From Candidatus Babeliales bacterium (lineage in GTDB: Bacteria; Babelota; Babeliae; Babelales; JACPOV01): a stretch of 64,000 nt of DNA. Below are positions 15,598 to 34,083 of this stretch, piece after piece. Every line of letters starts with the position of its first letter. Position 1 is the first letter of the stretch. The notes beneath the pieces were generated by a model, which made no database searches, had not been told where the DNA came from, and saw only the letters and a program-made list of their open reading frames with translations. Made by a program: the position numbers and the translations under genes. The stretch covers positions 64,001 to 128,000 of the forward strand of contig JBFWNW010000002.1 of assembly GCA_050250855.1 (NCBI GenBank), in the 5' to 3' direction.

Positions 15598-16443
15598 TTA
15601 TGGATTTCCATATTTTTTGAATATTTTTTCAACAAAAATACGGTTTGATTCTTTAGAAAGCTTTACTGCATGGTTATAATCAGCATTAAGTTTAAACGTT
15701 TTTTCTTCATTGCAACGATCAAAACCATAGCCTTCCCATAATTTTTCCCAGTTTTCTTTATACTCCAAACAACTGAGAATGGTAGGCAATGCTCCTTCAA
15801 GCCAAGCATCATTTTTTCTATAGATTTCGCACAGTTCAATAAAATCATCTTTATATACCGCTGGTATATATGCTATATCTGCATATGCATGACAGATGCA
15901 ATTATCTCCCCAGTTAGCTTTTAACATTTCCTTATAGCAATCAGGCGTTTCTTTATAAGCATTCTTTAGTGCTTCATAACCAAATTTTGTTGGCCACCAA
16001 CAATTAGTAATTGCTCTAATCCCTTTATTTAAATTAACAGCTTCTCCAATATCATATCTATGCCAATTAACGAATACATGATTAGCGGCCCATATTTTTG
16101 ATAGATCAAAACGATTATAACGCCAAACATTCATTAAGCAATCATCGTGACAGAACAAATACCCTTTATAATCAGGAAATCTTTGCATAGCATCACTAAG
16201 AGCATAATAACTAAATGCCCCTCGCTCCTCTTCAATCGCATAAACGTCAGGACACTCACTTGGTCCATAAAAAATTACTTTAGAAAAATAAGGCTCATAG
16301 ATCTTTTTTAAAAATGAGATTGCTTCATAATGAGCAAAATTAAAATTTATAATTAAAAGAACATCATCAAACATTTTTCCATAATTAGAAAAAATAATAG
16401 TAAAGACAAAAAAATAAACAATTCTTTTACTAAAAAAAACCAT
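15598..16443 (-). CDS. Exported putative glycosyltransferase resembling the STELLO/DUF288 C-terminal domain
   Basis: DVLLIINFN...IYEPYFSKVIFYGP...GYLFCHDD...NVW...DLSKIW; signal peptide; family recognised by eye. Confidence 0.55.
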   Translation of the reverse strand: MVFFSKRIVYFFVFTIIFSNYGKMFDDVLLIINFNFAHYEAISFLKKIYEPYFSKVIFYGPSECPDVYAIEEERGAFSYYALSDAMQRFPDYKGYLFCHDDCLMNVWRYNRFDLSKIWAANHVFVNWHRYDIGEAVNLNKGIRAITNCWWPTKFGYEALKNAYKETPDCYKEMLKANWGDNCICHAYADIAYIPAVYKDDFIELCEIYRKNDAWLEGALPTILSCLEYKENWEKLWEGYGFDRCNEEKTFKLNADYNHAVKLSKESNRIFVEKIFKKYGNP

Positions 16444-16455
16444 AGGTTTCCCTTT

Positions 16456-17535
16456 CTAGTGTGTTATAGTTTTATAATAGCTATAAGCCTTTTCAAGCAT
16501 AGCTATTTGCTCCGGTGTAAAAATTAACTCTCTTTTGTAATCAGGAATAGTTAATGATAACACGGTATCAATAAAATATTCTGTAGAAAATAGAAATGCC
16601 ATTTCGCTCTTCAAGTAAGCTTTAATATTTTTAATATATTGATCATATTCTTCTTTTTTCATCTTTTTCATAAATTTATATAATTCTCGATTATTTTTAA
16701 ATTTACGGCGATCAATAAAGCAACTTGGCCATACACAATCGGTAATATTTTCTGCACCCCAATAGACTGGTACACAGCCAGAAACTAAACAATCAAAAAT
16801 TTTTTCTGTAATATAGCCAGGAACATTATTACAATTTTCATAACAAATGCAAAATTTATAATTTTTTAATACTGGGCGTTTATGAGGAACCTTGCCTTTA
16901 AATGTCTTAAATTGCGATGCAGGCCAACCACCTTCACCATAAAAATCAAATTTTTTTCTCCTTTTACTTTTTTTCTCAAAAAAATTAATTACTTCTCTTC
17001 GTGCAGAATATAACTGGCCAACTCCTCCTGACATCTTATAGCTTACTATCATAGTGCACAATTTCTTTTGATCAAAAGAAGGAATATCTTTTTCTATTTC
17101 TAATGATGGTTGAGGATAAAAAAACTTTAAAGCTTTATCGTTATCAATCATTGCATCAGATAAATATAAAATTTTTTTACAATAAGGCCGATAATCAAAA
17201 CTATACATTCCTGGCGCAATCAGAGGCGGTTCAAAAACTCCAAAAATAGATTTTTCTTGCAATGTTTTCGGCAAAAGATCGACATTAGGAGTATTTAAAA
17301 AAAAAGCCCCTATACAATTATCATCATTATAATCACTAAGCTCTAAACAGCTTGGATGATAACCAAGATTTTTTATGGCTTGTGCAAAATCGTAAAACAT
17401 CTTCCATCCATTATCGCGACAAGGGTAATTAGGAATATTTAATATTTCATCAGACAAATTAAAATAAAATACTTTTTCTGTTCCAACTACAGTAAAAAAA
17501 GCTAAAAAAACTAATACTCTTATCTTATTATTCAT
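16456..17535 (-). CDS. GT10 fucosyltransferase-family protein, signal peptide
   Basis: YKFCICYEN...GYITEKIFDCLVSGCVPVYWG; FEPP. Confidence 0.88.
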   Translation of the reverse strand: MNNKIRVLVFLAFFTVVGTEKVFYFNLSDEILNIPNYPCRDNGWKMFYDFAQAIKNLGYHPSCLELSDYNDDNCIGAFFLNTPNVDLLPKTLQEKSIFGVFEPPLIAPGMYSFDYRPYCKKILYLSDAMIDNDKALKFFYPQPSLEIEKDIPSFDQKKLCTMIVSYKMSGGVGQLYSARREVINFFEKKSKRRKKFDFYGEGGWPASQFKTFKGKVPHKRPVLKNYKFCICYENCNNVPGYITEKIFDCLVSGCVPVYWGAENITDCVWPSCFIDRRKFKNNRELYKFMKKMKKEEYDQYIKNIKAYLKSEMAFLFSTEYFIDTVLSLTIPDYKRELIFTPEQIAMLEKAYSYYKTITH

Positions 17536-17542
17536 ATATTTT

Positions 17543-18391
17543 CTACGCCTTCAAGTAACTATGTTGTAAATGGGGATTAAAAAAAAGAGCCGCGAGCGCA
17601 ACATTTGATACGCCATGGATAAAATGATCACACTTAGAAAGCAACTGTGTTTCAATCAAAACCTGTTCTCCCATTAATGCTCTATTTTTTACTTGTTGGT
17701 TCCATATATGTAATCCTGTATCATCAAGAGATCGATAGGAGTCATAATAGATCACCTTACCAGGTAATTTCTTTTTTAATTCATCAAGAACTCGTTGATC
17801 ATCAGTCGCTACCAAAAATTGTGCTCCCTTATGCTTAGAAGCCTCTTCTATATACTGCTTAAGAGGAATTCGCGGTGCTTCATTATGGTCTGTTCTGCGT
17901 ACATGAATACCGACCGTCTTTTTACCTTGCATATTTTTGTGATAAAAATCATCAATTTTTGCACTAATTTGAGGTTTTATATGTATATATTTTTCTATAT
18001 ATGAGTTAATAAAAGATCTATATTCATAAGAAAAATTTTGTTCATATCCAATATATCCGCAAGGTATAGCTTGACCATCTGGCGTAACATAATCTTCATG
18101 TATTACATCACCAGAATTATACTGAGCTTCTGAGACGGGATAAAAATAATATTCCCAAATATTATCACTTCCATTATAAGTTCCTGATACTTTATAATAA
18201 GCAGGAGCACGGTTCCAATGTACCACAAGATCTAGCCCTTTTTCTTCACACCATATAAGATGACTGACTACACCAAATATATTAGAAAAAAGACCTGCCC
18301 AGCGACCACCTAAAACATAATGATCTTTTGAAAAAGAGAAAAAACTAAAAAATATAATCGACATACAAAGAAAACAAGAATAATTTTTCAT
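17543..18391 (-). CDS. NodZ/FUT8-like (GT23-type) fucosyltransferase, signal peptide
   Basis: AGLFSN, NIWEYYF, VGIHVRRTD, FLVATDD, LLSKCDHFIHGVSNV. Confidence 0.8.
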   Translation of the reverse strand: MKNYSCFLCMSIIFFSFFSFSKDHYVLGGRWAGLFSNIFGVVSHLIWCEEKGLDLVVHWNRAPAYYKVSGTYNGSDNIWEYYFYPVSEAQYNSGDVIHEDYVTPDGQAIPCGYIGYEQNFSYEYRSFINSYIEKYIHIKPQISAKIDDFYHKNMQGKKTVGIHVRRTDHNEAPRIPLKQYIEEASKHKGAQFLVATDDQRVLDELKKKLPGKVIYYDSYRSLDDTGLHIWNQQVKNRALMGEQVLIETQLLSKCDHFIHGVSNVALAALFFNPHLQHSYLKA

Positions 18392-18426
18392 TAACTATTT
18401 CCTCAACAAAAATCTGTTTTATAGCT

Positions 18427-19311
18427 CTAAGAAATAACCAAGCCTACCTTAAAATCTTCCGTCATTTTTAAATATATGCTTTTTAATAATGGATTAAAAA
18501 ACAATGCACCCAAGGAAACATTTGATACAGAGTGAATAAAACAATCGCACAAAGAAAGTAGCTTTGATTCTATAAGCACTTGCTCTCCCATAAGAGCTTT
18601 ATTATCTACTTGTGGGTTCCATATATGCAATCCTTTATTATTTGAAGAACGATACGCATCATAATAAATAACGTTTCCCTTTAGTTTTTGTTTTAAAATA
18701 TCTAACACTGATTGATCATCGGTCGCTACTAAAAACTGCACATCTTTAAAAGAATTTGCCACCTGAATATAAGCATTAAGAGGAATGCGTGGCGATTCAT
18801 AATGATCTGTTCTTCTAACGTGAATTCCTATTGTTGCTTTACCTTCCATATTTTTTTTATAAAAATCATTCATTTTTTCAAGAATAGAAGGCTTTATGTG
18901 AATATATCTTTGAATATAGGAGTTAATAAATGATCTATATTCATAAGAAAGATTTTTTTCATATAAATAATATAAACATTCAATAGCTTCTCCATCTGGT
19001 GGCGTATAATCTGCGTGCAATTCATCACCAAGTTGATAGTGAGCTTCTGAAACAGGATAAAAATAATATTCCCAAATATTATCACTGCCATTATAACCAT
19101 CACTCATCTTGTAAAAAGAAGGCTCATCTTTCCAATAAACTACTAAGTCCATTCCCTGTTTTTCACACCAAATGAGATGATTAATGACCCCAAGGATATT
19201 TGAAAATAACCCTGTCTGCCGACCTGTCAAAACATAATAATTATTACTTAAACAAGAAAATGATTGTCCTAAGAAAAAAACTCCTATAATAATTTTTACA
19301 AAAAACCGCAT
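18427..19311 (-). CDS. NodZ/FUT8-like (GT23-type) fucosyltransferase, signal peptide
   Basis: Close paralogue of 17543-18391; IGIHVRRTD, FLVATDD. Confidence 0.8.
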   Translation of the reverse strand: MRFFVKIIIGVFFLGQSFSCLSNNYYVLTGRQTGLFSNILGVINHLIWCEKQGMDLVVYWKDEPSFYKMSDGYNGSDNIWEYYFYPVSEAHYQLGDELHADYTPPDGEAIECLYYLYEKNLSYEYRSFINSYIQRYIHIKPSILEKMNDFYKKNMEGKATIGIHVRRTDHYESPRIPLNAYIQVANSFKDVQFLVATDDQSVLDILKQKLKGNVIYYDAYRSSNNKGLHIWNPQVDNKALMGEQVLIESKLLSLCDCFIHSVSNVSLGALFFNPLLKSIYLKMTEDFKVGLVIS

Positions 19312-19314
19312 AAC

Positions 19315-20385
19315 TTATCCTATTTTTTTAAACAAAAAAGAACAATAATCCTTTGCCTTTTCAAGGTTAGTTATTTGTTCCGGGTTAAAAATAAGCTCTT
19401 TTTTATAATCAGGAACTGTTAATGACAAAACTAAATCAATAAAATATTCCATAGAAAATAAAAACGCCATTTCACTCTTTAAATATGCCTTGATATTTTC
19501 AATATATTGATCGTATTCCTCTTTTTTCATATGCTTAATGAAATTGTACAACTCTTGATTATCCTTAAATTTACGCCGATCAATAAAGCAATTTGGCCAT
19601 ACATAATCGGTAATATTTTCTGCACCCCAATAAATAGGGACACATCCTGCAACTAAACAATCAAAAATTTTTTCTGTAACATATCCTGGCGCATTGTTGC
19701 TATTTTCGTAACATATACAAAACTTGTAATTTTTGAGCACTGGTCTTTTGTGAGAAACCTTCCCTTTATAGGTTTTAAATGACGCTGGCCATTCAATACC
19801 ATATACATCAAGCTCTTGGACTCTTTGAGGATCTGAATCAAAAAAATTAACTACACTAAGACGTTGGGTAAATAATTCTCCAGGCCTTTCTATAAATTTA
19901 TAGGTTGCAATAAGTGCACATAGTTTTTTTTCATGAAAATCTGGAATATCCTCTTCAATCTCCAGTGAAGGTTGAGGATAAAAAAATTTAAATCTCGTAT
20001 TGTTATCAATCTTATTATCCAAGAGATATAAAGTTCTAAAAGGATAGAAGGTTGTTGTATAATAACCAGGAGCAATAATAGGCGGCTCCCATAATGAGAA
20101 TAAACATTTTTCAGGAATTAGATTCGGTGAAATATAATTGGGCAAATTAATAAAAAAAGCACCTGCATAATCTTTTGATCCCAGATAATCAAATTCTTTT
20201 ACCTCATAACCAAGTTTTTTTGCCGCCTGAGCTAATTCATAAAAAACTCTATAAGCAGCATCTCTTTGCGGATAAGAAGTATCAGTAAAAGTAACTTCTG
20301 GAAGATTTATATAAAAAATCCTTTGATCAGCTTCACTCAAAAAAACCTGTAATAAAAAAGTAATTCCTAATAAATAGCGCACCAT
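19315..20385 (-). CDS. GT10 fucosyltransferase-family protein, signal peptide
   Basis: YKFCICYENS...GYVTEKIFDCLVAGCVPIYWG; paralogue of 16456-17535. Confidence 0.88.
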   Translation of the reverse strand: MVRYLLGITFLLQVFLSEADQRIFYINLPEVTFTDTSYPQRDAAYRVFYELAQAAKKLGYEVKEFDYLGSKDYAGAFFINLPNYISPNLIPEKCLFSLWEPPIIAPGYYTTTFYPFRTLYLLDNKIDNNTRFKFFYPQPSLEIEEDIPDFHEKKLCALIATYKFIERPGELFTQRLSVVNFFDSDPQRVQELDVYGIEWPASFKTYKGKVSHKRPVLKNYKFCICYENSNNAPGYVTEKIFDCLVAGCVPIYWGAENITDYVWPNCFIDRRKFKDNQELYNFIKHMKKEEYDQYIENIKAYLKSEMAFLFSMEYFIDLVLSLTVPDYKKELIFNPEQITNLEKAKDYCSFLFKKIG

Positions 20386-21857: not shown

Positions 21858-21867
21858 AGCTATCTCT

Positions 21868-23229
21868 TTATTCAGTACATGAAATTAAACAAATATCTTC
21901 TTTGTCTTTGGATAAATCATAAGATTGTATAGTTGAAAGTGATAATACAGTATTTCTTTTTACTATCATGCCACATGAATCTGCAGGAGACATAAATTTT
22001 ACTTGTGAAATAGCTAAACCATCCCATAGATATGAAGCATTTTGCTGAGAAGAAAAATCTTTTTTGGATAGTATACAGAAATTTGATTTTGTATCATGCA
22101 TAGCTTCTGCACAAATTTCTCTATTTTTTAATGTTTCTAAAGCTTTAACGTCTGTAATAACACAATAATAATCATAATTAACATCTTTTAACCAAAAATC
22201 AGGTGATGCATCCTGCGATGGGTTAATAACAAACGTATAATGAGAGTAAAGAGAAGCTAATTGTTCATAATCATTTTTATGAGATAAGTCTCCACAGCAA
22301 ATAACGTTTAGATTTTCATTTTTATATAAACCTTTAAATGCGCTTAATGTCTCTGCAAGTGTATTTGGATCATTAGCATAGATCAAAAAAGGAATAGATT
22401 TTTTTTGATACGATTCTCGATAAGGTCTTTGTTCAAGGGGTTTGTATGCCGACCGGCTGCTAATAACCTTTCTTAAAAATTGTTGCTTTTCCCAGTTAGT
22501 TGCACCATCTGCAATTGGATTATCTTCATTGTAGCGATATAAAATGTTTGGGTTAAATTTGTAATGATTAATTGCCATCTCTATAATTGGATACACCCAA
22601 GAAACGTCCTGTGCCATAGAGAAAAACATACCTTCATGTAGTAAATCTTTAAGAGCAACTTCTCTAAAAAGCCATGCATACATGCAACGAGGAGGACTAA
22701 AATACCAATTTTGACGAATAAGATTACGCTGCTTTACCATAGGAGGAATATCACCAGACCATGGTGCATAACCGTTTCTTGTTCCCCAAAAATTACCGTA
22801 GGTAAACCAAATAGATTCATCACTAAACTGTTCATTGATTGATGATAAAACATCTTTTGTAGTAAAGGTATCATCGCCATCCAAAATTACTGCAATTTCA
22901 TGAGGTTTGCAGAATTTATAAAAGGCATACACAATATTTCTGAGCGCAAGACCACGAATTTCATTTTTAATAAGAGTAACGCGATGATGTATATCATACT
23001 GATCAATAAAAGCCTTTGCATTTGCATAAGTATTATCAGGAGAACAATCATCTATATAAACAACGCGAAATTTTTCATAATCCTGCATAAGAACTGATGC
23101 TAAATTTTCATTGCATACATCTTGATTTTTATAAGAAGGAATAATAACAACAATATCATGCTGATATGCTGCTGCTATAGTATATACTCCCCCTACAAAA
23201 ATTAATCCAAAAAATAGTTTTAAATTCAT
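21868..23229 (-). CDS. GT2 glycosyltransferase, signal peptide
   Basis: VVIIPSYKN, YIDDCSPDNT, ILDGDD. Confidence 0.85.
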   Translation of the reverse strand: MNLKLFFGLIFVGGVYTIAAAYQHDIVVIIPSYKNQDVCNENLASVLMQDYEKFRVVYIDDCSPDNTYANAKAFIDQYDIHHRVTLIKNEIRGLALRNIVYAFYKFCKPHEIAVILDGDDTFTTKDVLSSINEQFSDESIWFTYGNFWGTRNGYAPWSGDIPPMVKQRNLIRQNWYFSPPRCMYAWLFREVALKDLLHEGMFFSMAQDVSWVYPIIEMAINHYKFNPNILYRYNEDNPIADGATNWEKQQFLRKVISSRSAYKPLEQRPYRESYQKKSIPFLIYANDPNTLAETLSAFKGLYKNENLNVICCGDLSHKNDYEQLASLYSHYTFVINPSQDASPDFWLKDVNYDYYCVITDVKALETLKNREICAEAMHDTKSNFCILSKKDFSSQQNASYLWDGLAISQVKFMSPADSCGMIVKRNTVLSLSTIQSYDLSKDKEDICLISCTE

Positions 23230-24167
23230 ACACACTTCCTTATTTGCTTTAAGTACCATTGAAAATTTTTAATATCATTTCTTGAACTATAAATATGGGT
23301 ATTTTCATTAACAAAATCACCTTGCCAGGTAATATAAAAAGGAATTGAAACCTGATTATAATCCAAAAGCATAGGAACTTTCTGCGTATAGTCTTGTTTA
23401 TGAATGCAAAGATCTTTTAAATAGGCTAAAATTCCCAACAACGCTTGTTCATAGCGAGCACAACCAAACCCTTCAGGAGCTGTCCCATCATCAATAAAAT
23501 TTCTTAAATCTTTGCTCATGTTATATAAGGGAGTAATAAAAAGATCTTGTGCTTTTTGCGCTACACCAATAACACCAGCCATAACTGCCTCTTGTGAAAG
23601 TATCCATTGATACTCGGGAGCATCAAGATTAAATTTATTTCTTACATAACGCGTTGTCTGCCATGCAATGGGATGTCTAAATTTACCATTATCACGCTCA
23701 TTACCAATAGTAGCTAAAAAATATCCTTTGTGCTGTATATATTCAAATAAATCATCAAGAGGACGCAATACCGTTGAGCCTGCATCTATCCATAGAACAT
23801 AGGGAAATCTTTCTAAAGCCTGTTTTATAACAACAGGTTTCCATGCAAACCATCCAGGAACCATTCTTCCTGCCTTATTAATTACTACCTGCCTGAGTAA
23901 GTCAGGATGCGTTAATTCAACATTATAAACTGCTATATTTTGAATAGTTTTAAGAAAAGAAATTTGTTGTTCTTCAAGGCCTAAATCAAAAACAGCAATT
24001 TCGTTAATATTGTCATAATTTGTAGCATGTAATGATCCAATTAAATTTAAAAGCTTAGAAAAATATTTTGCATCACATGCAGTACAATAATACTGAGGAA
24101 TAGCTTGTAGAAAAGCCATTCCTCCTAATAAAGCTAACCATACATAAAGAGTCTTTCTTTTTATCAT
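23226..24167 (-). CDS. DUF1647-like putative glycosyltransferase, signal peptide
   Basis: TACDAKYF, VFDLGL, FAWKPVVI, VLWIDAG, RYEQA. Confidence 0.6.
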   Translation of the reverse strand: MIKRKTLYVWLALLGGMAFLQAIPQYYCTACDAKYFSKLLNLIGSLHATNYDNINEIAVFDLGLEEQQISFLKTIQNIAVYNVELTHPDLLRQVVINKAGRMVPGWFAWKPVVIKQALERFPYVLWIDAGSTVLRPLDDLFEYIQHKGYFLATIGNERDNGKFRHPIAWQTTRYVRNKFNLDAPEYQWILSQEAVMAGVIGVAQKAQDLFITPLYNMSKDLRNFIDDGTAPEGFGCARYEQALLGILAYLKDLCIHKQDYTQKVPMLLDYNQVSIPFYITWQGDFVNENTHIYSSRNDIKNFQWYLKQIRKCV

Positions 24168-24173
24168 TACTCT

Positions 24174-24764
24174 TTACTCAAAAAATGTACGAATATCTAT
24201 AGTATCACTGACAATCGTTGTCTGAATTGCATAACGCAAATAAGTATAACGATATTTGAAAGTTGCAAGAACTGGTTCATACCCATATGCAGGTTCTTCT
24301 GTATCATGTACAACAAAAATATCTGCATTATGGCGCAAACGCTCAATATCAACTCTTCGTCTATCACCAGGACGATGATCAACAAAAACCACTGACCAAT
24401 AGCGATCTGTTCCTACAGCATCCCATAATTCTGGCTTTGGATTCTTTGCCCAATCATCTTCAAAAACAGGAATATAGCTAAAATGATGCCAATCTCGTGC
24501 CAAATCTATAAATAAAGAAAGCCATCTTTTATCAGTATCTGTTGTAAGAAGAAACCGTTTTGTTACTGAACAAACAGCATGCAAAAGTGGCGTACTATAA
24601 TCCCCAGATCCAAGTTCTAAAATAGGCCCTTTAGTATTTGCCACGACCGTCATAAGAGGAGCCATGTGAGTCCCATAATTGCCATCACCAAGACGTCTAT
24701 TCGCTTCTATAAACTGGCCATTTAAACTCAATAAAATTATGAATAAAAATAATTTTTTTTGCAT
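24174..24764 (-). CDS. Class I SAM-dependent methyltransferase-like protein, signal peptide
   Basis: ILELGSGDYST, VVFVDH, VVHDTE. Confidence 0.6.
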   Translation of the reverse strand: MQKKLFLFIILLSLNGQFIEANRRLGDGNYGTHMAPLMTVVANTKGPILELGSGDYSTPLLHAVCSVTKRFLLTTDTDKRWLSLFIDLARDWHHFSYIPVFEDDWAKNPKPELWDAVGTDRYWSVVFVDHRPGDRRRVDIERLRHNADIFVVHDTEEPAYGYEPVLATFKYRYTYLRYAIQTTIVSDTIDIRTFFE

Positions 24765-24777
24765 ACTATTCCCTCTT

Positions 24778-25698
24778 TTAAAAAGACCAATCAATATCCC
24801 AAATATCTAAATCTTTAAAGTAACCTTTTCCATACTGTTCAAACCATGCCAATACCTGTTTTTTCCTCCATAAAATTGGTTTATCCCATACAGAAAAATC
24901 AAGAAATTCATAACCTTTAAACCAATATACTGGAGATGGTTGCGTTCTTAATCCTCGCTCATCTTTTGAAGGGAAATAACGCACATTAATTTCCTGGCAA
25001 GATTTTTCTGGTTGCCTGATACGCTCAAGACAGCGATACCACGCTTGTTTTTCTAATAAGTTTTGCCAATTAACAAACTGAAAATGCAAAAGGCCATATT
25101 CATAACCCTGTAAACGGAATCTTTTTCCTTGCACGGGAAAACTACGATTATGCAAAAAGTATGAAGGAAAATTTGAAACACCATCATCGCAAAAAATAAC
25201 AGGTTTATAATCATTGGTCCATTTTGAGTCATCAAAACGATAGCGATCTATTGTTCTCCAGAGTTGAATCCAACAAACCTCCATACTTTCTCCTGGCTGC
25301 AAAGAAAGAATAAGTTTGCGTAAAAAATTATTATCTGAACAGTTTGCAGTAAACATTTCATCCGCATCAATTAAAACAAAATGAGTACCACCAAGTGCTC
25401 TGCCAGCATCTAATAATTTCTGCTTGTTATCACTTTCTTTGCCAACTTGCCAGCCAGATTGTTCATTGCGCAAAATGACAAATTCTTTGCCAAGCTTTTT
25501 ACAACATGATTCAACCAGAATTTTAGTGCTATCTTCAGAATTATCATCAAGCGTAACAAATGCATCAACATAAAAAGACAATGCTTGTAAACATTGCTCA
25601 ATACATTGCTCTTCATTTCTTACTTGCATAAGACTTACTATTTTAGGTGAAGCAGTTAAAGATAAAAAAGTCCCTAACAATAATAATAATTTAAACAT
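24778..25698 (-). CDS. GT2-like glycosyltransferase, signal peptide
   Basis: VRNEE, LDDNSEDST, LIDADE, LLHF. Confidence 0.8.
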   Translation of the reverse strand: MFKLLLLLGTFLSLTASPKIVSLMQVRNEEQCIEQCLQALSFYVDAFVTLDDNSEDSTKILVESCCKKLGKEFVILRNEQSGWQVGKESDNKQKLLDAGRALGGTHFVLIDADEMFTANCSDNNFLRKLILSLQPGESMEVCWIQLWRTIDRYRFDDSKWTNDYKPVIFCDDGVSNFPSYFLHNRSFPVQGKRFRLQGYEYGLLHFQFVNWQNLLEKQAWYRCLERIRQPEKSCQEINVRYFPSKDERGLRTQPSPVYWFKGYEFLDFSVWDKPILWRKKQVLAWFEQYGKGYFKDLDIWDIDWSF

Positions 25699-25711
25699 AT
25701 TCAGCACTCCT

Positions 25712-26560
25712 TTACTGAACAAATGCTTCTTTTTTTAACCAGCTTCCTGCCCAATGGTGCACCGCATATGATTCAGGTTTTTGCCATTCTGAGGCAGGGG
25801 TTCCTCGTTGTTCATAACCACATGGGTAAAAGTAACTAGCGGGAAAAGCTACGATACGAAATTCTTGCATCATAGAGGGAACATATTTTAAAAAAAGTTT
25901 AGTAAAAAACAAAGGACCCGTTCTTAGTATAATCTGAATCTCATGAGATGAATTACGCAACTCTTCAATACATTTTTGCAATAATGGATGATGAGGAATA
26001 GACGCTATTAAAGCATTGTTAAGCTGGACCATATTGGTATCCAAAGGTTGAATACCGGTGTAAAAATCATAAATACATAAAGAATTCATTGATTTTAAAC
26101 ATTCAAAATCGGTATCAATGTAAATACCCCCAAATTGCTCTAAAATTTCATAACGCCAAATATCAGACTTTTCACCATAATTCTTTGAAGCATCAAATAG
26201 ATCTTTATTACGCCACGCAAATGATGCTACATCTGCATCTGTCCATAATTTATATTCCCAGCCAGGATTATGCTTCAACCAGCTTTCTTGATAAGCGCGG
26301 TATTTTTCAGGAAAAGGACTACCAAGCCAAATTTGATGTATTATTTTAGGGATACGAACAGACGTCGGCACAATTCTTGCTGGTGAAAATAAGTTATATA
26401 AACGCTCAAAAAAGTTTTTAAGCATCATATTATTATTCTTTTCAAGAATATGTTTATATGAATCAGCTTGCATTGATGTATTAAAATCTACCCATATAAA
26501 ATTTTCCTGTGCACAAACTAAAGAACTAAAAAGAAACGTTATGCTTAATAGTTTTTTCAT
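25712..26560 (-). CDS. GT32 (OCH1-like DXD) glycosyltransferase, signal peptide
   Basis: IPKIIHQIWLG, KSDIWRYEIL, GGIYIDTD, TGPLFFT, HHWAGSW. Confidence 0.88.
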   Translation of the reverse strand: MKKLLSITFLFSSLVCAQENFIWVDFNTSMQADSYKHILEKNNNMMLKNFFERLYNLFSPARIVPTSVRIPKIIHQIWLGSPFPEKYRAYQESWLKHNPGWEYKLWTDADVASFAWRNKDLFDASKNYGEKSDIWRYEILEQFGGIYIDTDFECLKSMNSLCIYDFYTGIQPLDTNMVQLNNALIASIPHHPLLQKCIEELRNSSHEIQIILRTGPLFFTKLFLKYVPSMMQEFRIVAFPASYFYPCGYEQRGTPASEWQKPESYAVHHWAGSWLKKEAFVQ

Positions 26561-26562
26561 AA

Positions 26563-27594
26563 TTATACCCTTGCTTGTTTATAAGATTTTTCTGGTACAA
26601 CCTTGTGCGCTAAATACCAAAAATATGCTTCCTTTAAACCATTTTTCAATGAAGTTTTTGCTGTCCAACCAAGCTGTGAAATTTTATCAACATTTAATAC
26701 TTTTCTTGGCGTGCCATCTAAAGTATTGATATTAAAAAGGATTTCTCCTGCATACCCAACGATCTCTTTAATTAAAGAAGCTAGTTCGGCAATTGTTATA
26801 TCTTTACCGGTCCCAATATTAATATGACCCGATTCTTCATAACTATTCATTAAAAATAAGCATGCTTGCGCTAAATCATCGACGTATAAAAATTCTCGCA
26901 ACGCTTTACCCGTTCCCCATAAAGAAACTGACGGTTTATTTTCTTCTTTTGCTGCATGAATTTTTGCAATAAGTGCAGGAATAACGTGCGATGATTCAAA
27001 GTCAAAATTATCATGAGGACCATAAAGATTTGTTGGCATACAAGAAATAAATTTTGTACCATATTGCCTGTTATAGCTTTTGCATAAAAGTATGCCGGCA
27101 ATTTTTGCAAGCGCATACGGCTCATTTGTTTTTTCAAGTTCATCGGTCATTAAATACTCTTCTTGTATTGGTTGAGGACAATTACGAGGATAAATGCAAG
27201 AAGAACCTAAAAATAAGAGCTTTTTAACGCCATTGGTATACGATGCATGAATAATATTTGCTTCAATCATAAGATTGTCATAAATAAATGAGGCTGGAAA
27301 ATCATTATTTGCTTTAATGCCGCCAACTTTTGCAGCAGCCAAAAACACATATTCCGGTTTTTCTTGGTTGAAAAAATCATGTACCGCTGCTTGGTTGCGC
27401 AAATCAAGTTCTGCAAAACTACGCGTTATAAGGTTAGTATATCCTTCAGCTTGCAACGCTCGCATTAAAGCAGAGCCAACCAACCCCTGACCTGCTATAT
27501 AAATTTTTGCCTGCTTGTCCATATGTGCTTCACTAACACCAGTAAAAAGATTAAAAATCAAGCCTATACTCATTATCTTTGTTACGTAGTTCAT
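26563..27594 (-). CDS. fcl: GDP-L-fucose synthase with N-terminal signal-like extension
   Basis: [56 protein letters not shown] before ATG 27594; enzyme core starts at 27522. Confidence 0.93.
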
Positions 27595-28783
27595 GAGATT
27601 CTCCTGATAATTTTTGAGCTGCAATGTAGATATTTGAGCCGGTTGCCTCACTTTTTAATTCCCATGCAATTTGTTCTAAATCTGCATCCATCATTAGACA
27701 AACTAAATCTTTAAAGGTTGTTTTTGGCTCCCAACCAAGAAGTTTTTTTGCTTTGCTAGGATCACCCAGTAAAATTTCAACTTCAGTCGGTCTGAAATAA
27801 CGAGGATCAACCGCTATCAACAGCTCACCAGTTTTTTTATTGTATCCTTTTTCCTCAGCACCTATACCGCGCCATTCTACCGTAATACCAACACGTTCAA
27901 ATGCTAATTCAACAAACTCTCTTACGGTATGCGTTTGTCCGGTTGCAACAACCCAATCTTCAGGCTTTTCATACTGTAAAATAAGCCACATTGCTTCTAC
28001 ATATTCTTTGGCATAGCCCCAATCTCGTTTTGCATCAAGATTACCTAAATAAATAGGATCTTTTTTACCTAAAGAAATTGCGGCTACCGCACGCGTAATT
28101 TTTCTGGTTACAAAGGTTTCGCCACGTAAAGGAGATTCATGATTAAATAAAATACCATTTGCAGCAAACATGCCGTAGGCTTCTCGATAGTTTACCGTTA
28201 TCCAATAGGCATAAAGTTTTGCAACACCATAGGGAGAACGTGGATAAAAAGGGGTCGTTTCTTTTTGAGGAATTTCTTGTACGTTGCCATACATTTCTGA
28301 AGTTGATGCTTGGTAAAATTTCGTTGTTTTATCAAATCCGGTTACACGCAATGCTTCTAATAAACGCAAGGTACCTATGCCATCAGCATTTGCTGTATAT
28401 TCTGGCACTTCAAAAGAAACTTTTACATGAGATTGTGCTGCAAGATTATAAATTTCATCAGGCTTAATTTCTTGTATCAAACGAATAAGATTGGTAGAAT
28501 CGGTCATATCACCAAAGTGTAAAAAGAAATTTCCTTTCTTTTTATTATGAGGATCACGGTATAAAGGATCTATGCGATGCGTATTAAACATTGATGAACG
28601 ACGTTTAATGCCATGAACTTCATACCCTTTACCCAGTAAAAATTCAGCCAAGTAGGCCCCATCTTGACCAGTTATACCGGTAATTAAGGCAACTTTTTTC
28701 TTCATACTCTGCTCTCCTGCAAAAAAAGTACTGAATCCTAAGCAAGCTACTGCAACAAAAATTTTTTTATAAGAGTGCTTCAT
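27551..28783 (-). CDS. gmd: GDP-mannose 4,6-dehydratase with N-terminal signal-like extension
   Basis: [53 protein letters not shown]; enzyme core starts at 28705. Confidence 0.96.
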
Positions 28784-28798
28784 ATCCTATTTCCTTTT

Positions 28799-29827
28799 TT
28801 ATGTATAATGATGGCTATTTTTTTCCCGTAATTGATGCAAAATATGTTTTACTTTATCTGTCTGATCTCGCTTCGCTATTAAAAGAACATCATCTGTTTC
28901 TACAACACATAGATCTTCAACGCCTATAAGTGCTACGAGCTTTTTTGGCACCTGAACAATATTATTAGCTGCGTGCAATTCAATAACTTCTGTTTGCTGT
29001 TGGCTATGCTTTTTGTGCAAAGAAAGAAATATTTCTAAGTTGCCAACATCTGACCATGTAAAAGAGCAGGGCTGTACATACACGGCATTACTTTTTTCTA
29101 ATACCGCATAATCAATAGAAATATTTTCGGCATCTTTGTAATCTGCTTTATGTTCAAAAAAATCACATACCACCTTATATAGCTGTTGGGCATGACGATT
29201 GTATTCTTCTATAAAAACAGAACTTTTGGCACAAAAAATACCTATATTCCATAACATGGTATCCATGGTACTATATACATCCGCCAATTGCGCTGAAGGT
29301 TTTTCATGAAAACGAGAAACTTTTACAACATCATTTTTTTGCGCTGCCATTTCTATGTAGCCATAGTTTGTTGCGGGAAAATCAGGACGAATTCCTAACA
29401 ATGTTATGGCATCATGAGCTTGCGAAAATTCTAACGCATTATTTAAATGTTTGGCAAATTGGTCATCTTCTACAATAAAAGCATCAGCAGGTAAAAAAGC
29501 TATAATTGCTGAAGGGTCTTTTTGTTGAATATAAAGCGTAGCCAAAAGTAATGCTGGCGCTGTATTGCGGCCAATTGGTTCAGACAAAATGCCGCCTATA
29601 GAATCTCCCAAAAGACTTTTAATAGAATCAACCTGCTGCTCAGTTGTCATAATAAAAATATTATGTTTTTCAACAATTAAAGAAGCACGCATAACAGTAC
29701 GCTCAAGCAAAGAATTTTGATCATCAAGAGAGAGCAGCTGCTTTGGCTTTTTCTCTCTACTCAAAGGCCATAAACGCTCACCTTTGCCTCCAGCTAAAAT
29801 AACAATATAGCGTGATGTTATATCCAT
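28799..29827 (-). CDS. manC: Mannose-1-phosphate guanylyltransferase
   Basis: ILAGGKGERLWPLSR, EPIGRNTAPA, FHEKP, SIDYAVLEK, WSDVG; no signal peptide. Confidence 0.92.
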   Translation of the reverse strand: MDITSRYIVILAGGKGERLWPLSREKKPKQLLSLDDQNSLLERTVMRASLIVEKHNIFIMTTEQQVDSIKSLLGDSIGGILSEPIGRNTAPALLLATLYIQQKDPSAIIAFLPADAFIVEDDQFAKHLNNALEFSQAHDAITLLGIRPDFPATNYGYIEMAAQKNDVVKVSRFHEKPSAQLADVYSTMDTMLWNIGIFCAKSSVFIEEYNRHAQQLYKVVCDFFEHKADYKDAENISIDYAVLEKSNAVYVQPCSFTWSDVGNLEIFLSLHKKHSQQQTEVIELHAANNIVQVPKKLVALIGVEDLCVVETDDVLLIAKRDQTDKVKHILHQLREKNSHHYT

Positions 29828-29833
29828 AACTAT

Positions 29834-30547
29834 TTATTTTTTTCTTCGTTCAAAAAACAAACGACAAAATGTTTTAGCTGCTTCTTTCATAATTGCTACT
29901 GAAAGCTTTGAATCGCCATGAATTCTATTACGTGCATGAATCGGAATTTCTGTTATACGCAAACCATCCTCTTTAAAGCGATACAGTGATTCAATGCAGA
30001 AAGAAAATCCTTTTGAACTTACTTTTTTATAGACATGAGGCTTTAATTTTTGTACAGAATATAAACGGTAAGCACCGGTACAATCGTACGGCATACCAAG
30101 GCCTCGTTTAATTAAATTTCGCCAAAAGTAAGTAAATGGTAAACGAATTCTTCCCCAACCGCTCATGCCACCGCCATGAATATAGCGTGAACCAATAACG
30201 ACATCATGAACATCTCTTTTTTCAAAAAGAGCAGGAATATAACGCGGATCGTGCGTAAGATCTGCATCCATCGTAATTAAAAATTTATAATTATGTTTTT
30301 GCGCATATTCAAATGCCTGCACGTGAGCCGTTCCTAAACCAAGCTTTGCAGGGCGATGCATAACATGCACAGAAGGATCTTTTTTACTTAAATCATCAAG
30401 AACTTTTCCGGTGCCATCTGGAGAATTATCATCACAAAAAAGAATATCAACATCTTCTTTGTGCTTCTTTATTTCTTCATACAAAATTAAAACATTGTCA
30501 CGTTCATTATAGGTGGGAACAAAAACTAAAACTTCATTTTTTTGCAT
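29834..30547 (-). CDS. Polyprenol-phosphate mannosyltransferase (DPM1-like GT2)
   Basis: PTYNERDN, DDNSPDGT, KLGLGTA, MDADLTH, VIGSRY, DCTGAYRLY. Confidence 0.85.
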   Translation of the reverse strand: MQKNEVLVFVPTYNERDNVLILYEEIKKHKEDVDILFCDDNSPDGTGKVLDDLSKKDPSVHVMHRPAKLGLGTAHVQAFEYAQKHNYKFLITMDADLTHDPRYIPALFEKRDVHDVVIGSRYIHGGGMSGWGRIRLPFTYFWRNLIKRGLGMPYDCTGAYRLYSVQKLKPHVYKKVSSKGFSFCIESLYRFKEDGLRITEIPIHARNRIHGDSKLSVAIMKEAAKTFCRLFFERRKK

Positions 30548-30556
30548 AGTATAAAC

Positions 30557-31909
30557 CTAGTGAATCAATTGGTACGTAATAATAGTATTTTCTTTCTTTG
30601 CACAACGATATGCAACAACCATACCAAAAGCAGAAAAAAGGATAAAGAAGTATTCAAACATCATCCGATAGCGCGCACATCCGTCATGTCCTGTTATAAA
30701 GGAAAAATAAAAAATTGAAATAATGACAAAGCTAACTATAAAATAATATTTTTTATGCCATAGAGCATAAAGGCCGATCATGATAAAAAATAGTTGCAAT
30801 ACCATCCAGAGTAATTGTAAAAATGCAATAATATGTATTAAACGCGATGAAGTGCCATCAACTACATAATGGTAAAAACGATTATATAAAGAGCCTGACT
30901 TTGAAAAAAATGATGTTTCCGTACCTTTTAACGATGGATTTACTAAAAATTTAAGTTGATTCGTATACAAAGCACCTACCGTCTTTATCATGTTATGCAA
31001 CCAAATACGTACAACTAATACTGGTTTTTCATAAAAATAAGAATGCATCAATGCTTTTGGTTTATTCCAACGCGTATGATCATTATGATGTTTACCATCC
31101 ATTAACGTACCGACCTGAACTAATCCTTCTGCCCATGAGATACCTTGGTCATGTGCTATAACTTTTGCCAAAAAATAAAAATAAATATTTTCATGCATTA
31201 AAGGGGCAATTGTCATAGAACCAAATTGATACTTATTGTGTAGCATATAACCAGCAACAGGAATATAAAAACAAAACAAGCACAGTAAAATGGCATTCAA
31301 TACTTTTTGTCTCTGTAAATAAGCATGTAGCCCGACAAAAAAGATTACTATGAAAATATAAAAAAGCGCTACCGGTTTTACCGCAACTGAACAACCATAC
31401 AATAAGCCTGCTAGGGCTAAAGAAGATAAGCTAGACGTTTTAAAATACGTACATAAACGCTCAAGAGAAGCTATCAAGAAAAATGCTAAAAGCACTTCTG
31501 TGAGCATAAATTGACTGTATATTAAAAAACCAAGATTAAAAGATCCTAACAAAACAGTTACTTGTGCAACATGTTCATCAAAAAGCATGTATGCTATGCG
31601 ATAGAGCAACAATAACGCTAAAAGGCTTAGCAAGATTTGTGCAATAATGACCCATGTGTGATGAAAACCAAATAACTTATAAATACTACCTAGAAAAAAT
31701 GGGTACCCTAATGTTTGAACGGGAATAATGGATCCTCGTTGAGGATCCATTAATTGATTATCTGTTGCAAAATAGTTGCCTATTGCCACATATCCTGATG
31801 AATCAAGATCACAATGAGCTTCATAGGCAGGATTTATCCTATACAAACTGTAGGATAATAAACAAAAAATAACTATCGAACAGAGTAAAACTATTTTTGT
31901 ACTATTCAT
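30557..31909 (-). CDS. ArnT/PMT-like (GT-C) integral membrane glycosyltransferase
   Basis: Many TM segments; DSSGY, GYPFFL, LTEVL, VKP, ARYRM. Confidence 0.75.
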   Translation of the reverse strand: MNSTKIVLLCSIVIFCLLSYSLYRINPAYEAHCDLDSSGYVAIGNYFATDNQLMDPQRGSIIPVQTLGYPFFLGSIYKLFGFHHTWVIIAQILLSLLALLLLYRIAYMLFDEHVAQVTVLLGSFNLGFLIYSQFMLTEVLLAFFLIASLERLCTYFKTSSLSSLALAGLLYGCSVAVKPVALFYIFIVIFFVGLHAYLQRQKVLNAILLCLFCFYIPVAGYMLHNKYQFGSMTIAPLMHENIYFYFLAKVIAHDQGISWAEGLVQVGTLMDGKHHNDHTRWNKPKALMHSYFYEKPVLVVRIWLHNMIKTVGALYTNQLKFLVNPSLKGTETSFFSKSGSLYNRFYHYVVDGTSSRLIHIIAFLQLLWMVLQLFFIMIGLYALWHKKYYFIVSFVIISIFYFSFITGHDGCARYRMMFEYFFILFSAFGMVVAYRCAKKENTIITYQLIH

Positions 31910-34083
31910 TGATTGATTTCTTGATTACCTCCTCCTTGGCAGGCAAGCTTATCAACAATCAGCGTTATTTCTGCTACGCGCATTAAACGTTCTATGCTAA
32001 TTGGCGCTTTATAATCATTGTGCATAGCGCCAAAAAAATCCTTAAGCAACTGCTCATGACCTTTATCAGGAACCATTACTTTTTCATTAAATGATGATGG
32101 TAATCCAAAACCTTGCAAGACTTTATAATCGTCCATCAAAATTGATTTAGAATCATAAAAGACTTCCATACGCTCTTTTCCTAGATCGCCATGACCTAAT
32201 GACGTATACAATAAAGAACAAATTGAACCATCTGCAAAGCTAAATTGAACGGAAAAATTATCCGTTGGAAAAAGATCATCATGTTTTGGTTTTAGTGATT
32301 CTACTGATAATGCTACTGGATAGGAATCTGTTAAATGAACAAAAAGATCAAAAATATGACACGCCTCACCTATAATTCTGCCAGCACCAACTTCAGTTTG
32401 AATCCAATGATTTTTAGGGATAAAACCAGCATTCATTCGATAATGTACAACAAGTGGTGATGAACGCTTTGCTACTTCTTTTTTTATTTTCTGCACAAAA
32501 GGAGCAAAGGAACGATTATAATCAACACAGAATGGCAATGAAGAATTTTTCTCAAAAAACGCTTTCATTTCGTGTAGTTGATCAAAATCAGTAACCATAG
32601 GTTTTTCTAAGAATACCGCTTTGCCATGTTGCAATGCAGCAAGAGCTTGCTTGCTATGGTATTTGTGAGGAGATGCAATTAATACTGCATCAACTAAATC
32701 TTCATCAAAAAGTTTGCTATCATCAGATAATGCTTTTGCTGCACCATATGTTTTTGAAACAGTAATTGAATTTGCCATATTGGCATCAACAACGGCATTA
32801 ATTTTTACATTTTTGATACGAGAAATTATAGGCATAAGCTTCACTTTTGCAAAGCCACCAGCACCAACAACCCCGACACGTAAACGATCTTTAAATGCTG
32901 GAACAAATCTTATTTCTTCTAATGGTACGGATTCTTTTTGAACCGCCTCTTCTTGATGAGGCGCAAGCTCATGTTCTTCAGTACGATAAGAAAGAACTAC
33001 CGCCAAAACGTCTTGCGATTTTAAAGAATCATATGCCTTTTCTGCTTGATCAAGAGAGGCTTCTTGTGAAATTAAACTATCAACATCAAGCTTTTTACGT
33101 TCAATAAGATCAACAATTGATTCCATATTGCGATTTTCTGTCCAACGCACGTAGGCATAAGGATAATCTAAACCATTTTGCTCATACGATGCATCGTAAC
33201 GGCCAGGACCATATGAACATGAAATAAGAAAATCAATCTCTTTTTGATAAAATGGTGAACGATCAAAGGTAAGCGGAACATCACCAACTAAGACAACACG
33301 CCCTTTTTTGCGCGTAATTTCCATAGATTGTTGAATTATTCCTTTATGCGATGATCCTGCGGTAATAATAGTACAGTCAACGCCCTGATGAGCAGTTACA
33401 AATTCTATTTCTTTTTTTATATCAACTTCTGCAGGATTCAACACGGTATCAGCACCTAGTTTAAGCGCTAAATCAAGGCGATTTTTTAATAAATCTAATG
33501 CAATAACTTTGCAACCAGAAATCTTTGCCAATTGCACCGTAAATTGCCCAAGTAGACCTAAACCAAGAACGCACACGGTATCACCCAGTTTAACATCGGC
33601 ACGACGTAAACCTTGTAATGCAATTGCACCTAACGTTGTAGTACTTGCTTGGCGCAAATATTCTTCGCTGCTTACTTTAGTAACAAGATTTTCTGGCACA
33701 ATGACCATTTCAGCATGATGAGCAAAACCTGCGCCAGCACAAGCAACAAAATCTCCTGCTCTGTATTTTTTTATATTTTTGCCTACAGCAATAACTTTTC
33801 CAGAACATGAGTATCCTAGTGCTTGCAAATTGCCGGCAAGTTTTTCGCGAATAAGTGCTTTTGTTCCTTCTATCCCATTTTTTGCAATAGAAAGAAGAAC
33901 TTTAGGCAACTTTAACGGAATATTGCTAAAAACACTTTGTTGAGCATTTGCAATAGTAGAACCTTCTGTTCCTGGACTAATACAAGAGTAATAAACTTCA
34001 ACAAGAACACTATTATCATCAAGAATAGGTTCGCATACATCTTTTACTGCTATAATACCTTTTTCTAGAAACAGTTGTCTCAT
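31906..34083 (-). CDS. Bi-domain oxidoreductase (Zn-ADH fold + Gfo/Idh/MocA)
   Basis: ISPGTE, LGYSCSG, GLGLLG, SYGPGRYD, YVRWTENRNM, GAGGFA, EKPM, GEACHIFD. Confidence 0.88.
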   Translation of the reverse strand: MRQLFLEKGIIAVKDVCEPILDDNSVLVEVYYSCISPGTEGSTIANAQQSVFSNIPLKLPKVLLSIAKNGIEGTKALIREKLAGNLQALGYSCSGKVIAVGKNIKKYRAGDFVACAGAGFAHHAEMVIVPENLVTKVSSEEYLRQASTTTLGAIALQGLRRADVKLGDTVCVLGLGLLGQFTVQLAKISGCKVIALDLLKNRLDLALKLGADTVLNPAEVDIKKEIEFVTAHQGVDCTIITAGSSHKGIIQQSMEITRKKGRVVLVGDVPLTFDRSPFYQKEIDFLISCSYGPGRYDASYEQNGLDYPYAYVRWTENRNMESIVDLIERKKLDVDSLISQEASLDQAEKAYDSLKSQDVLAVVLSYRTEEHELAPHQEEAVQKESVPLEEIRFVPAFKDRLRVGVVGAGGFAKVKLMPIISRIKNVKINAVVDANMANSITVSKTYGAAKALSDDSKLFDEDLVDAVLIASPHKYHSKQALAALQHGKAVFLEKPMVTDFDQLHEMKAFFEKNSSLPFCVDYNRSFAPFVQKIKKEVAKRSSPLVVHYRMNAGFIPKNHWIQTEVGAGRIIGEACHIFDLFVHLTDSYPVALSVESLKPKHDDLFPTDNFSVQFSFADGSICSLLYTSLGHGDLGKERMEVFYDSKSILMDDYKVLQGFGLPSSFNEKVMVPDKGHEQLLKDFFGAMHNDYKAPISIERLMRVAEITLIVDKLACQGGGNQEINQ

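Follow-up and report, generated by a model that had tools for sequence, protein, structure and literature searches.

Signal peptide-like leaders on the GDP-fucose synthesis enzymes Gmd and Fcl of a Candidatus Babeliales bacterium: candidate export signals and a possible dual start of gmd

Why would the enzymes that make GDP-fucose carry N-terminal leaders that look like export signals? The question is raised by two adjoining genes, gmd and fcl, in a stretch of 64,000 nucleotides (nt) of DNA from Candidatus Babeliales bacterium (contig JBFWNW010000002.1 of assembly GCA_050250855.1, positions 64,001-128,000), called the window below. The canonical bacterial GDP-fucose enzymes are leaderless and cytoplasmic. 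To our knowledge, glycosylation in the periplasm or at the surface of bacteria is thought to need lipid-linked donors, as nucleotide sugars and NADPH stay in the cytoplasm. In contrast, both enzymes of the window are preceded by hydrophobic leaders, and we consider it very probable that these leaders are real and translated. Judged by hand-made rules rather than with SignalP, they are Sec-type signal peptides, from which export and cleavage can be predicted.

The long form of gmd (27551..28783, minus strand, with its TAA stop at 27553-27551) encodes a protein of 410 amino acids (aa) that consists of a 26-aa leader and GDP-mannose 4,6-dehydratase. The protein scores 611.4 bits against NCBIfam TIGR01472 (cut-off 415) and matches Pfam PF16363 with E = 4.4e-157. 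The TIGR01472 profile (positions 1-341 of 342) aligns with residues 30-371; hence, the leader lies outside the domain. The sequence contains a Rossmann GxxGxxG motif and the Thr/Glu...Tyr...Lys residues that we take to be the SDR catalytic residues, and it shares 60-77% identity with ordinary Gmds of bacteria and archaea. The leader (28706..28783, minus strand) comprises an n-region, MKHSYKK (+3), an uncharged h/c region of 16 residues and then EQS. Its cleavage candidates by the residues at -3 and -1, CLG/FST and GFS/TFF (the slash marks the cut), are both mediocre. Shine-Dalgarno (SD)-like sequences (28785..28796, minus strand), AAGGA at 28796-28792 and AGGA at 28788-28785, precede the leader ATG (28783-28781) and are held in the 15-nt gap between the manC stop and this ATG. 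The native ATG (28705-28703) is in the same frame and is preceded by AGGAG at 28718-28714, inside the leader. This second site (28703..28718, minus strand) is a candidate start for a 384-aa cytoplasmic isoform. SD strength was calculated as the duplex energy with the 16S rRNA tail, which ends ...CACCUCCUUUC in the source genome, and amounts to -5.8 kcal/mol at the leader ATG and -7.4 kcal/mol at the internal ATG.

The long form of fcl (26563..27594, minus strand; 343 aa) has a 24-aa leader ahead of GDP-L-fucose synthase. Its best match by far is NF047922, the GDP-L-fucose synthase family (470.7 bits, E = 2.3e-141; profile positions 2-305 of 308 on residues 28-331), although the score misses the curated cut-off of 500 by a little. 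We consider this assignment likely even with the strict threshold missed, as the gene adjoins gmd and its product is 53-77% identical to gmd-linked homologues in relatives. The leader and its SD (27523..27605, minus strand) consist of AGGAG at 27605-27601, an n-region MNYVTK (+1), 15 uncharged residues and EAH, with SEA/HM as a good cleavage candidate by the same hand-made rules. The leader ATG (27594-27592) has an SD energy of -7.4 kcal/mol, against -2.8 kcal/mol for the native ATG of MDKQAKI (27522-27520). The 3' end of gmd overlaps the fcl leader by 44 nt (27551..27594, minus strand). RR is absent from both leaders, which therefore lack the twin arginine of Tat signals (TatC itself was not searched for). 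A preliminary description of this DNA had given the same anatomy, namely leaders of 26 and 24 aa, an intact native Met behind each leader, SD-like sequences at both gmd ATGs, AGGAG at the fcl leader ATG and the 44-nt overlap, and all of it was confirmed, coordinates included. Public gene calls differ at these genes: one source gives a Gmd of 384 aa and an Fcl of 319 aa, both starting at the internal Met, and another gives 410 and 343 aa. Such truncation makes the leaders easy to miss.

Several controls bear on whether such leaders could be accidents. In the real upstream sequences of 1017 source-genome genes, read in the two wrong frames, 11 of 2034 frames (0.54%) were leader-like, and only two of 2034 also had an SD of -4 kcal/mol or stronger. 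Metagenome Gmd loci had first been sought as DNA of closer relatives, for conservation of the internal SD; the search returned ordinary Gmds only, and these became a control. None of the 79 loci, about a dozen of them with a GC content <40%, has a leader-like extension. Among 80 Gmd loci of the genome_contigs set, four were flagged: three belong to Babeliales, and the fourth, a 153-codon GC-rich frame in a metagenome-assembled genome (MAG) of Armatimonadales, is a spurious case (one of the 76 non-Babeliales genome loci). One further Babeliales locus of this set has an obvious leader that scores just under the threshold. The canonical GDP-fucose pathway (ManC, Gmd and Fcl of colanic acid and O-antigen clusters) has the same catalytic domains and the same manC-gmd-fcl order as the window, and differs in its lack of leaders (none at the metagenome loci, and 75 of 76 non-Babeliales genome loci without). 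We analysed 20 leaders, 13 of Gmd and seven of Fcl. In all of them the n-region has a charge of +1 to +5, an uncharged stretch spans 9-24 residues, and small residues at -3 and -1 form one or more sites. Such a site is often precisely at the native N-terminus, as in ...NVFA/QKTALIFG and ...SLA/KVALIFG.

Are the leaders shared by relatives? We searched 60 genomes of the same order (61 counting the source genome, G000) with the Gmd and Fcl proteins and read the N-terminal context of every match from the DNA. At E 1e-100 or better, gmd is present in 33 of the 61 genomes, and in 13 of the 33 it begins with a hydrophobic extension, for a total of 15 such genes (one each in G000, G001, G002, G004, G013, G021, G023, G040, G044, G056 and G059, and two each in G033 and G039). 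The gmd leader sequences cannot be aligned between genomes and have only their build in common. In 11 of the 15 genes the Met at the native position is missing (G059 has a GTG two codons downstream), so that the leader start is the only ATG available there. SD energies at the leader starts range from -4.2 to -11.4 kcal/mol, except for -2.1 in G056. Fcl has a leader in seven genomes (G000, G004, G013, G021, G033, G039 and G044), three of them without the native Met. In G059, gmd and fcl are fused into one 743-codon frame (L124, G059:C3) with a single leader. With this fusion included, all eight genomes with a leader on Fcl fall within the 13 with a leader on Gmd, and none has a leader on Fcl alone. 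The preliminary description had named, as its own refutation, leaders that are unconserved in relatives and internal ATGs as the only starts in use; the leaders found on Gmd in 13 of 33 genomes and on Fcl in eight go against that outcome.

Some of the leaders may resemble lipoprotein signals, in which a lipobox, L-[AS]-[GA]-C, stands at the end of the h-region. Compared by eye with this pattern, the G059 leader has a lipobox-like LTVSC, the G056 leader has FSGSC, and the gmd leader of the window contains VAVAC, with its Cys at position 14 after just six hydrophobic residues. Many gmd leaders of the G000 clade have one Cys close to where the hydrophobic stretch ends (VAVAC, LLLLC-GH, IAIC-S and LLLC-M), and these could be non-canonical lipoprotein signals. 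A named Babeliales record (L038, 1025-4928) shows a leader-bearing gmd without an adjacent fcl, among leader-bearing STELLO-like genes. A neighbouring leader-bearing protein there appears sulfotransferase-like, judged by eye from a PKCGTN P-loop-like motif, and would need 3'-phosphoadenosine 5'-phosphosulfate outside the cytoplasm.

In a maximum-likelihood tree of 50 Gmd sequences, the leader-bearing genes occupy at least three positions. The first is the clade of the source genome (G000, G001, G002 and G004; support 99/91), the second is the f15 clade, sister to a leaderless paralogue of G023, and the third is G059 alone, to which a poorly resolved basal group must be added. Mapping of the leader onto this tree needs three changes, at least two of which are forced by its starred branches. 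Plain and leader-bearing gmd genes occur together in G023, G040 and G056. Leaders would thus have arisen more than once in the order, and the simplest route is that a gene acquired an upstream start in frame.

The preliminary description had spoken of export leaders grafted onto ordinary enzymes. That leaders sit on ordinary enzymes has good comparative support; the grafting has none. Searches of the source genome with both leaders (blastp-short and blastn-short) matched only gmd and fcl themselves, so that the genome offers no donor sequence for grafting from another gene, and the leaders are unlike between lineages. More likely, each leader formed where it now stands: an in-frame start was gained upstream, and the former 5' region with its ribosome-binding site would thereby have become coding. 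Such an origin would explain the purine-rich acidic spacers between leader and enzyme (GEQS, KSETD, HENEECE and SEVENP). The relatives form a series, from plain enzymes, through a leader with retained native start or a pair of plain and leader-bearing paralogues, to an obligate leader, and would make a rare natural record of the relocation of a cytoplasmic enzyme to another compartment.

Does gmd of the window use both of its starts, and so make a cytoplasmic as well as an exported isoform, as the preliminary description had supposed possible? Each of its two in-frame start codons has a ribosome-binding site, which is not the case for fcl. The spacing of the internal gmd SD is ideal. SD sites are in use in this organism: energies of -7 kcal/mol or stronger are found at 16.7% of 939 gene starts of the source genome versus 0.9% of 5406 internal in-frame ATGs. 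The native Met is retained in eight of nine clade sequences (G000, G001, G002 and the metagenomic P0002-P0006, the exception being G004), and the leaders of these nine have diverged beyond recognition. Fcl is leaderless in G001 and G002, where a cytoplasmic Gmd would thus be needed. The source-genome clade would then keep the native gmd start and its SD, and hence a leaderless cytoplasmic Gmd isoform as well. We regard the production of both a leader-bearing and a leaderless isoform by dual initiation as having almost an even chance of being right. A second isoform of fcl is unlikely, because its internal ATG lacks an SD.

Some observations weigh against dual initiation. The internal gmd SD is weaker in G001 (-5.1 kcal/mol) and in G002 (-3.3), the overall range being -7.4 to -2.2, and its bases double as codons of the acidic spacer (GGA GAG), so that it may be a relic. 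The Fcl Met is kept in four of the seven leader cases without any SD; hence, retention of Met is by itself weak evidence for a dual start. Outside the source-genome clade, a leader-bearing gmd keeps the native Met only in G013, which makes four of 15 genes in the order. These facts suit an alternative in which export occurs as proposed from the leader ATG alone, and the internal ATG and its AGGAG are ancestral relics: the purine-rich spacer codons look like an SD in their own right, and the Met has been lost from 11 of the 15 leader-bearing genes. No promoter-like site was found between the two gmd ATGs, and the region has 10 promoter-like sites compared with 14.3 expected from shuffles; an internal promoter was therefore rejected. 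A single start would leave unexplained why the Met is retained in the clade despite diverged leaders, why the internal SD reaches, at ideal spacing, a strength rare among internal ATGs, and how the leaderless Fcl of G001 and G002 would be served. Other lineages (G023, G040 and G056) meet the same need with plain and leader-bearing paralogues. We hold a single start to be possible, on balance somewhat doubtful.

In-frame alternative starts that yield two isoforms are known from bacterial CheA (long and short forms), IF2 and ClpB, and from dual targeting in eukaryotes. The bacterial cases resemble gmd in having two in-frame starts, each with a ribosome-binding site, and a longer product with an extra N-terminal module. 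They differ in that the extra module of gmd would be a signal peptide that decides the compartment, a situation familiar mainly from eukaryotic dual targeting. Two further enzymes of G044 (L248/L252) have a comparable layout. GalU has a signal-like extension ahead of an intact native Met, with SD energies of -11.9 kcal/mol at the leader ATG and -3.3 at the internal ATG. GlmU has one ahead of its native Met too, and both of its starts have an SD (-7.7 and -5.8 kcal/mol). The latter may be a second case of a dual start, because GlmU is needed in the cytoplasm.

Where would exported Gmd and Fcl find their substrates? A search with the ManC of the window as query (E 1e-20 or better) detected ManC in each of the 20 genomes whose gmd is exclusively plain. 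Of the 13 leader-bearing genomes, four yielded no ManC, namely G013, G021, G039 and G044, which are 94-98% complete and have leaders on both Gmd and Fcl; their genes of the NTP-transferase family are GalU-like or GlmU, not ManC. A Fisher test of this association, done by hand, gave p ~0.02, a value to be read with the fact that the relatives are not independent and that only three families are involved. Two other genomes, G049 and G055 (L147, L154 and L164), have leader-bearing GT10 genes, and no Gmd, Fcl or ManC was detected in them with the queries used, which suggests that they may rely on host GDP-fucose. Both patterns fit enzymes that would use host GDP-mannose or host GDP-fucose. Fcl needs stoichiometric NADPH, and Gmd needs bound NADP+. 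Use of host GDP-mannose or GDP-fucose, together with the NADPH need of Fcl, would mean that the working compartment is open to host metabolites. This could be either a periplasm in equilibrium with the host cytosol or the host side after release.

The source assembly (1.22 Mb, 11 contigs, 95% complete, 36% GC) encodes three TLC-type nucleotide transporters, two secretins and one signal peptidase I (Peptidase_S26), a set that fits an intracellular parasite that takes host nucleotides. For ATP, the TLC transporters already imply a periplasm in equilibrium with the host cytosol. The closest named Gmd loci are those of 'Candidatus Babeliales bacterium' MAGs. Signal-like N-termini are frequent in this genome. 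A lax hand-made rule finds them in 466 of 1142 open reading frames (ORFs; ~41%), with known false positives among Rossmann N-termini such as that of UDP-glucose dehydrogenase, and a stricter one in 314 of 1019 ORFs of at least 120 aa (~31%), with fcl just below its threshold; this range of 31-41% is thus rough. In Chromulinavorax, which like Babeliales belongs to the Dependentiae (TM6), signal peptides are predicted on 44% of coding sequences, and lipopolysaccharide (LPS) genes were not observed (PMC6561590). The Sec system itself is taken from the literature on this phylum (PMC6561590). According to the TM6 comparative paper, type II secretion genes, including two copies of gspD, are common to TM6 genomes, and most LPS genes are missing from Babeliales (PMC4776705).

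Taken with the neighbouring genes, these data lead us to favour, with moderate confidence, a GDP-fucose pathway that works outside the bacterial cytoplasm on host substrates. Gmd and Fcl would form part of an exported set of tools for fucosylation, alongside the four fucosyltransferase-like enzymes and seven further leader-bearing ones encoded by the adjacent island. They would be exported by Sec and then probably cleaved by signal peptidase I, and would act in a periplasm bathed in host cytosol, or, once released in vesicles or through a type II secretin, on the host side. In that compartment they would use host NADPH to make GDP-fucose from host GDP-mannose, just where it is required by the exported fucosyltransferases. 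Export and cleavage, the compartment, the use of host substrates and dual initiation are all predicted from sequence.

More tentatively, Babeliales may run Leloir-type glycosylation outside the cytoplasm on host GDP-mannose and NADPH, an ability that would have evolved on several occasions, as upstream starts supplied the enzymes with signal peptides, with a dual-start gene or a pair of plain and exported paralogues as the intermediate. Extracytoplasmic synthesis of Leloir donors would then involve Gmd and Fcl and, in one relative, possibly GalU and GlmU too. If true, these bacteria would have their own equivalent of a Golgi-like compartment, or would secrete a 'glyco-factory' into the host. 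A GDP-fucose pathway exported by Sec would break the rule of lipid-linked donors and would be sensible only for a parasite bathed in host metabolites. It would bear on how Dependentiae exploit their protist hosts and on the make-up of their LPS-free surface.

Several observations weigh against export and host-substrate use. Five genomes have a leader on Gmd and a plain Fcl, and leader-bearing fucosyltransferases are encoded even by genomes with plain Gmd and Fcl (e.g. G005 and G006). In the gmd leader, no -3/-1 site is better than mediocre, and the h-region is closely followed by three lysines, a position in which lysines hinder export in E. coli. According to one public gene call, both proteins begin at the internal Met. 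Sec exports unfolded chains, and NADP+ and NADPH are not normally found in the periplasm. Nucleotide-sugar transporters of the families TPT and Nuc_sug_transp (SLC35-type) were not found in the 95% complete source genome, the second of these searches having been made without a positive control. Finally, the median cysteine content of leader-bearing versus plain proteins is 3 versus 2 for Gmd and 5 versus 4 for Fcl, which is no difference; adaptation to an oxidizing compartment through cysteine content was rejected on this ground.

The five genomes with a leader on Gmd alone are also what one would expect if the exported enzymes were effectors that alter the nucleotide sugars of the host, for instance by depleting GDP-mannose or by increasing GDP-fucose for host glycans, rather than suppliers of bacterial transferases: a host enzyme could finish the reaction, or depletion could be the aim. 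One neighbouring transferase matches a TcdA/TcdB-type DXD domain, and Dependentiae are known for large sets of secreted effectors (PMC6561590). The genes of Gmd and Fcl however share an operon-like row with 11 transferase-like genes that bear leaders and include the four fucosyltransferase-like ones, which fits a relation of donor and consumer, and we consider the effector role unlikely.

A little less probable still is that the leaders are uncleaved N-terminal anchors that hold Gmd, Fcl and the transferases on the cytoplasmic face of the inner membrane, so that the chemistry stays cytoplasmic. NADPH and GDP-mannose would then not be needed outside the cytoplasm. Anchoring would suit the leaderless ManC of the same operon, the uncharged stretches of 20-24 residues found in some leaders, which are enough to span a membrane, and the poor cleavage sites of the gmd leader with the lysines behind them. 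Nevertheless, all 20 leaders are positive on their N-terminal side, and by the positive-inside rule this places the C-terminal enzyme outside. Many h-regions have just 9-16 residues and are followed by A-x-A-like sites at the native N-terminus (NVFA/QK and SLA/KV), and no ManC was detected in four genomes whose Gmd and Fcl both bear leaders. Least of all do we believe that the leaders are untranslated frames thrown up by AT-rich DNA, with the internal ATGs as the true starts: the gene call that uses these ATGs, the stronger SD at the internal gmd ATG and the Phe/Ile/Leu/Lys-rich peptides that AT-rich sequence encodes would agree with it, but leader-like upstream frames are rare in the null test, the SD of fcl is at the leader ATG and not at the internal one, most leader-bearing relatives have no alternative start, and no metagenome Gmd locus, AT-rich ones included, has such a frame.

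In eukaryotes, the Golgi contains type II membrane fucosyltransferases of families GT10, GT11 and GT23, which have an N-terminal hydrophobic signal and work outside the cytosol, and GDP-fucose is made in the cytosol and imported through SLC35 transporters. The exported pathway proposed here resembles Golgi fucosylation in its CAZy-type families. It differs in that the synthesis enzymes also carry a signal, and SLC35-type transporters were not found. Chlamydia trachomatis offers another case of relocated cytoplasmic sugar enzymes, as it secretes its glycogen enzymes to the lumen of the inclusion, where host UDP-glucose is used (Gehre et al. 2016, PMC4829429). There, the route is type 3 secretion without an added Sec signal peptide, the product is glycogen and not GDP-fucose, and the evidence is experimental, whereas ours is read from sequence. 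Closest in kind is the Sec secretome described for Chromulinavorax destructans, which shares its phylum with the source organism and in which an exceptionally high proportion of proteins likewise bears such an N-terminal signal (PMC6561590). Exported proteins listed there are proteases, nucleases, ankyrin proteins and ORFans, and neither 'fucose' nor 'glycosyl' appears in the text of that paper (PMC6561590). In the genome studied here, the exported set would also include nucleotide-sugar synthesis enzymes, which have cytoplasmic substrates. Our literature search found no paper that links Dependentiae, Babeliales or TM6 with fucose, GDP-mannose or glycosyltransferases (the supplements of Dependentiae papers were outside the search), and no described signal peptide on a GDP-mannose dehydratase or another nucleotide-sugar synthesis enzyme. 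Thus, the large Dependentiae secretome was already known, and for signal peptides on GDP-fucose synthesis enzymes we found no published description.

The island next to gmd and fcl holds eleven minus-strand genes, from 15598 to 26560, all with signal-like N-termini: the four fucosyltransferase-like genes and seven that are glycosyltransferase-like or of unknown type. The fucosyltransferase-like genes are two of GT10 type (16456..17535 and 19315..20385), one of NodZ/FUT8/GT11 type (17543..18391) and one with a weak match to NodZ/FUT8 (18427..19311). The other seven are a STELLO-like, glycosyltransferase-like gene (15598..16443), a GT2 (21868-23259), a GT2-like gene (24778-25698), three unassigned genes (20385-21857, 23226-24167 and 24174-24764) and a DXD sugar-binding glycosyltransferase (25712-26560). 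The last of these matches Gly_transf_sug and the TcdA/TcdB catalytic glycosyltransferase domain (E = 4e-11), and it could be host-directed. Across the order, 18 of 22 GT10 ORFs have leaders, two have none and two could not be judged. This count and the leaders of the island transferases suggest that the consumers of GDP-fucose are generally exported in the order and that the producers followed in some lineages. Leaderless proteins of the source genome include ManC, GalU, GlmU, UDP-glucose dehydrogenase, UDP-GlcNAc 2-epimerase, a Dpm1-like GT2 and two other SDR epimerases.

Upstream of gmd on the minus strand, the leaderless manC (28799..29827), which encodes a mannose-1-phosphate guanylyltransferase-like protein (best match TIGR01479, 253.9 bits, below the cut-off of 372.95), is in a row with the Dpm1-like GT2 gene (29834-30547) and a gene for a PMT_2/PMT membrane protein (30557-31909). 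A second PMT-like gene is found at 36741-38222 on the plus strand. The row looks like a module for protein O-mannosylation from polyprenyl-phosphate-mannose, which would use cytoplasmic GDP-mannose. At the head of the glycosylation island, a minus-strand gene (31906-34083) codes for a 725-aa fusion of zinc-type alcohol dehydrogenase and GFO/IDH/MocA oxidoreductase domains. Elsewhere in the window, on the plus strand, two tandem paralogues of ~478 aa (39605-41041 and 41371-42810) have nearly identical signal-like N-termini (MKNHFKKLLLFGLLGAMPTIFAEKIKLESS...). Also on the plus strand, the gene at 11772-13208 encodes a family 1 glycoside hydrolase of the beta-glucosidase type with a signal-like N-terminus; the TM6 comparative paper counts beta-glucosidase within energy metabolism (PMC4776705).

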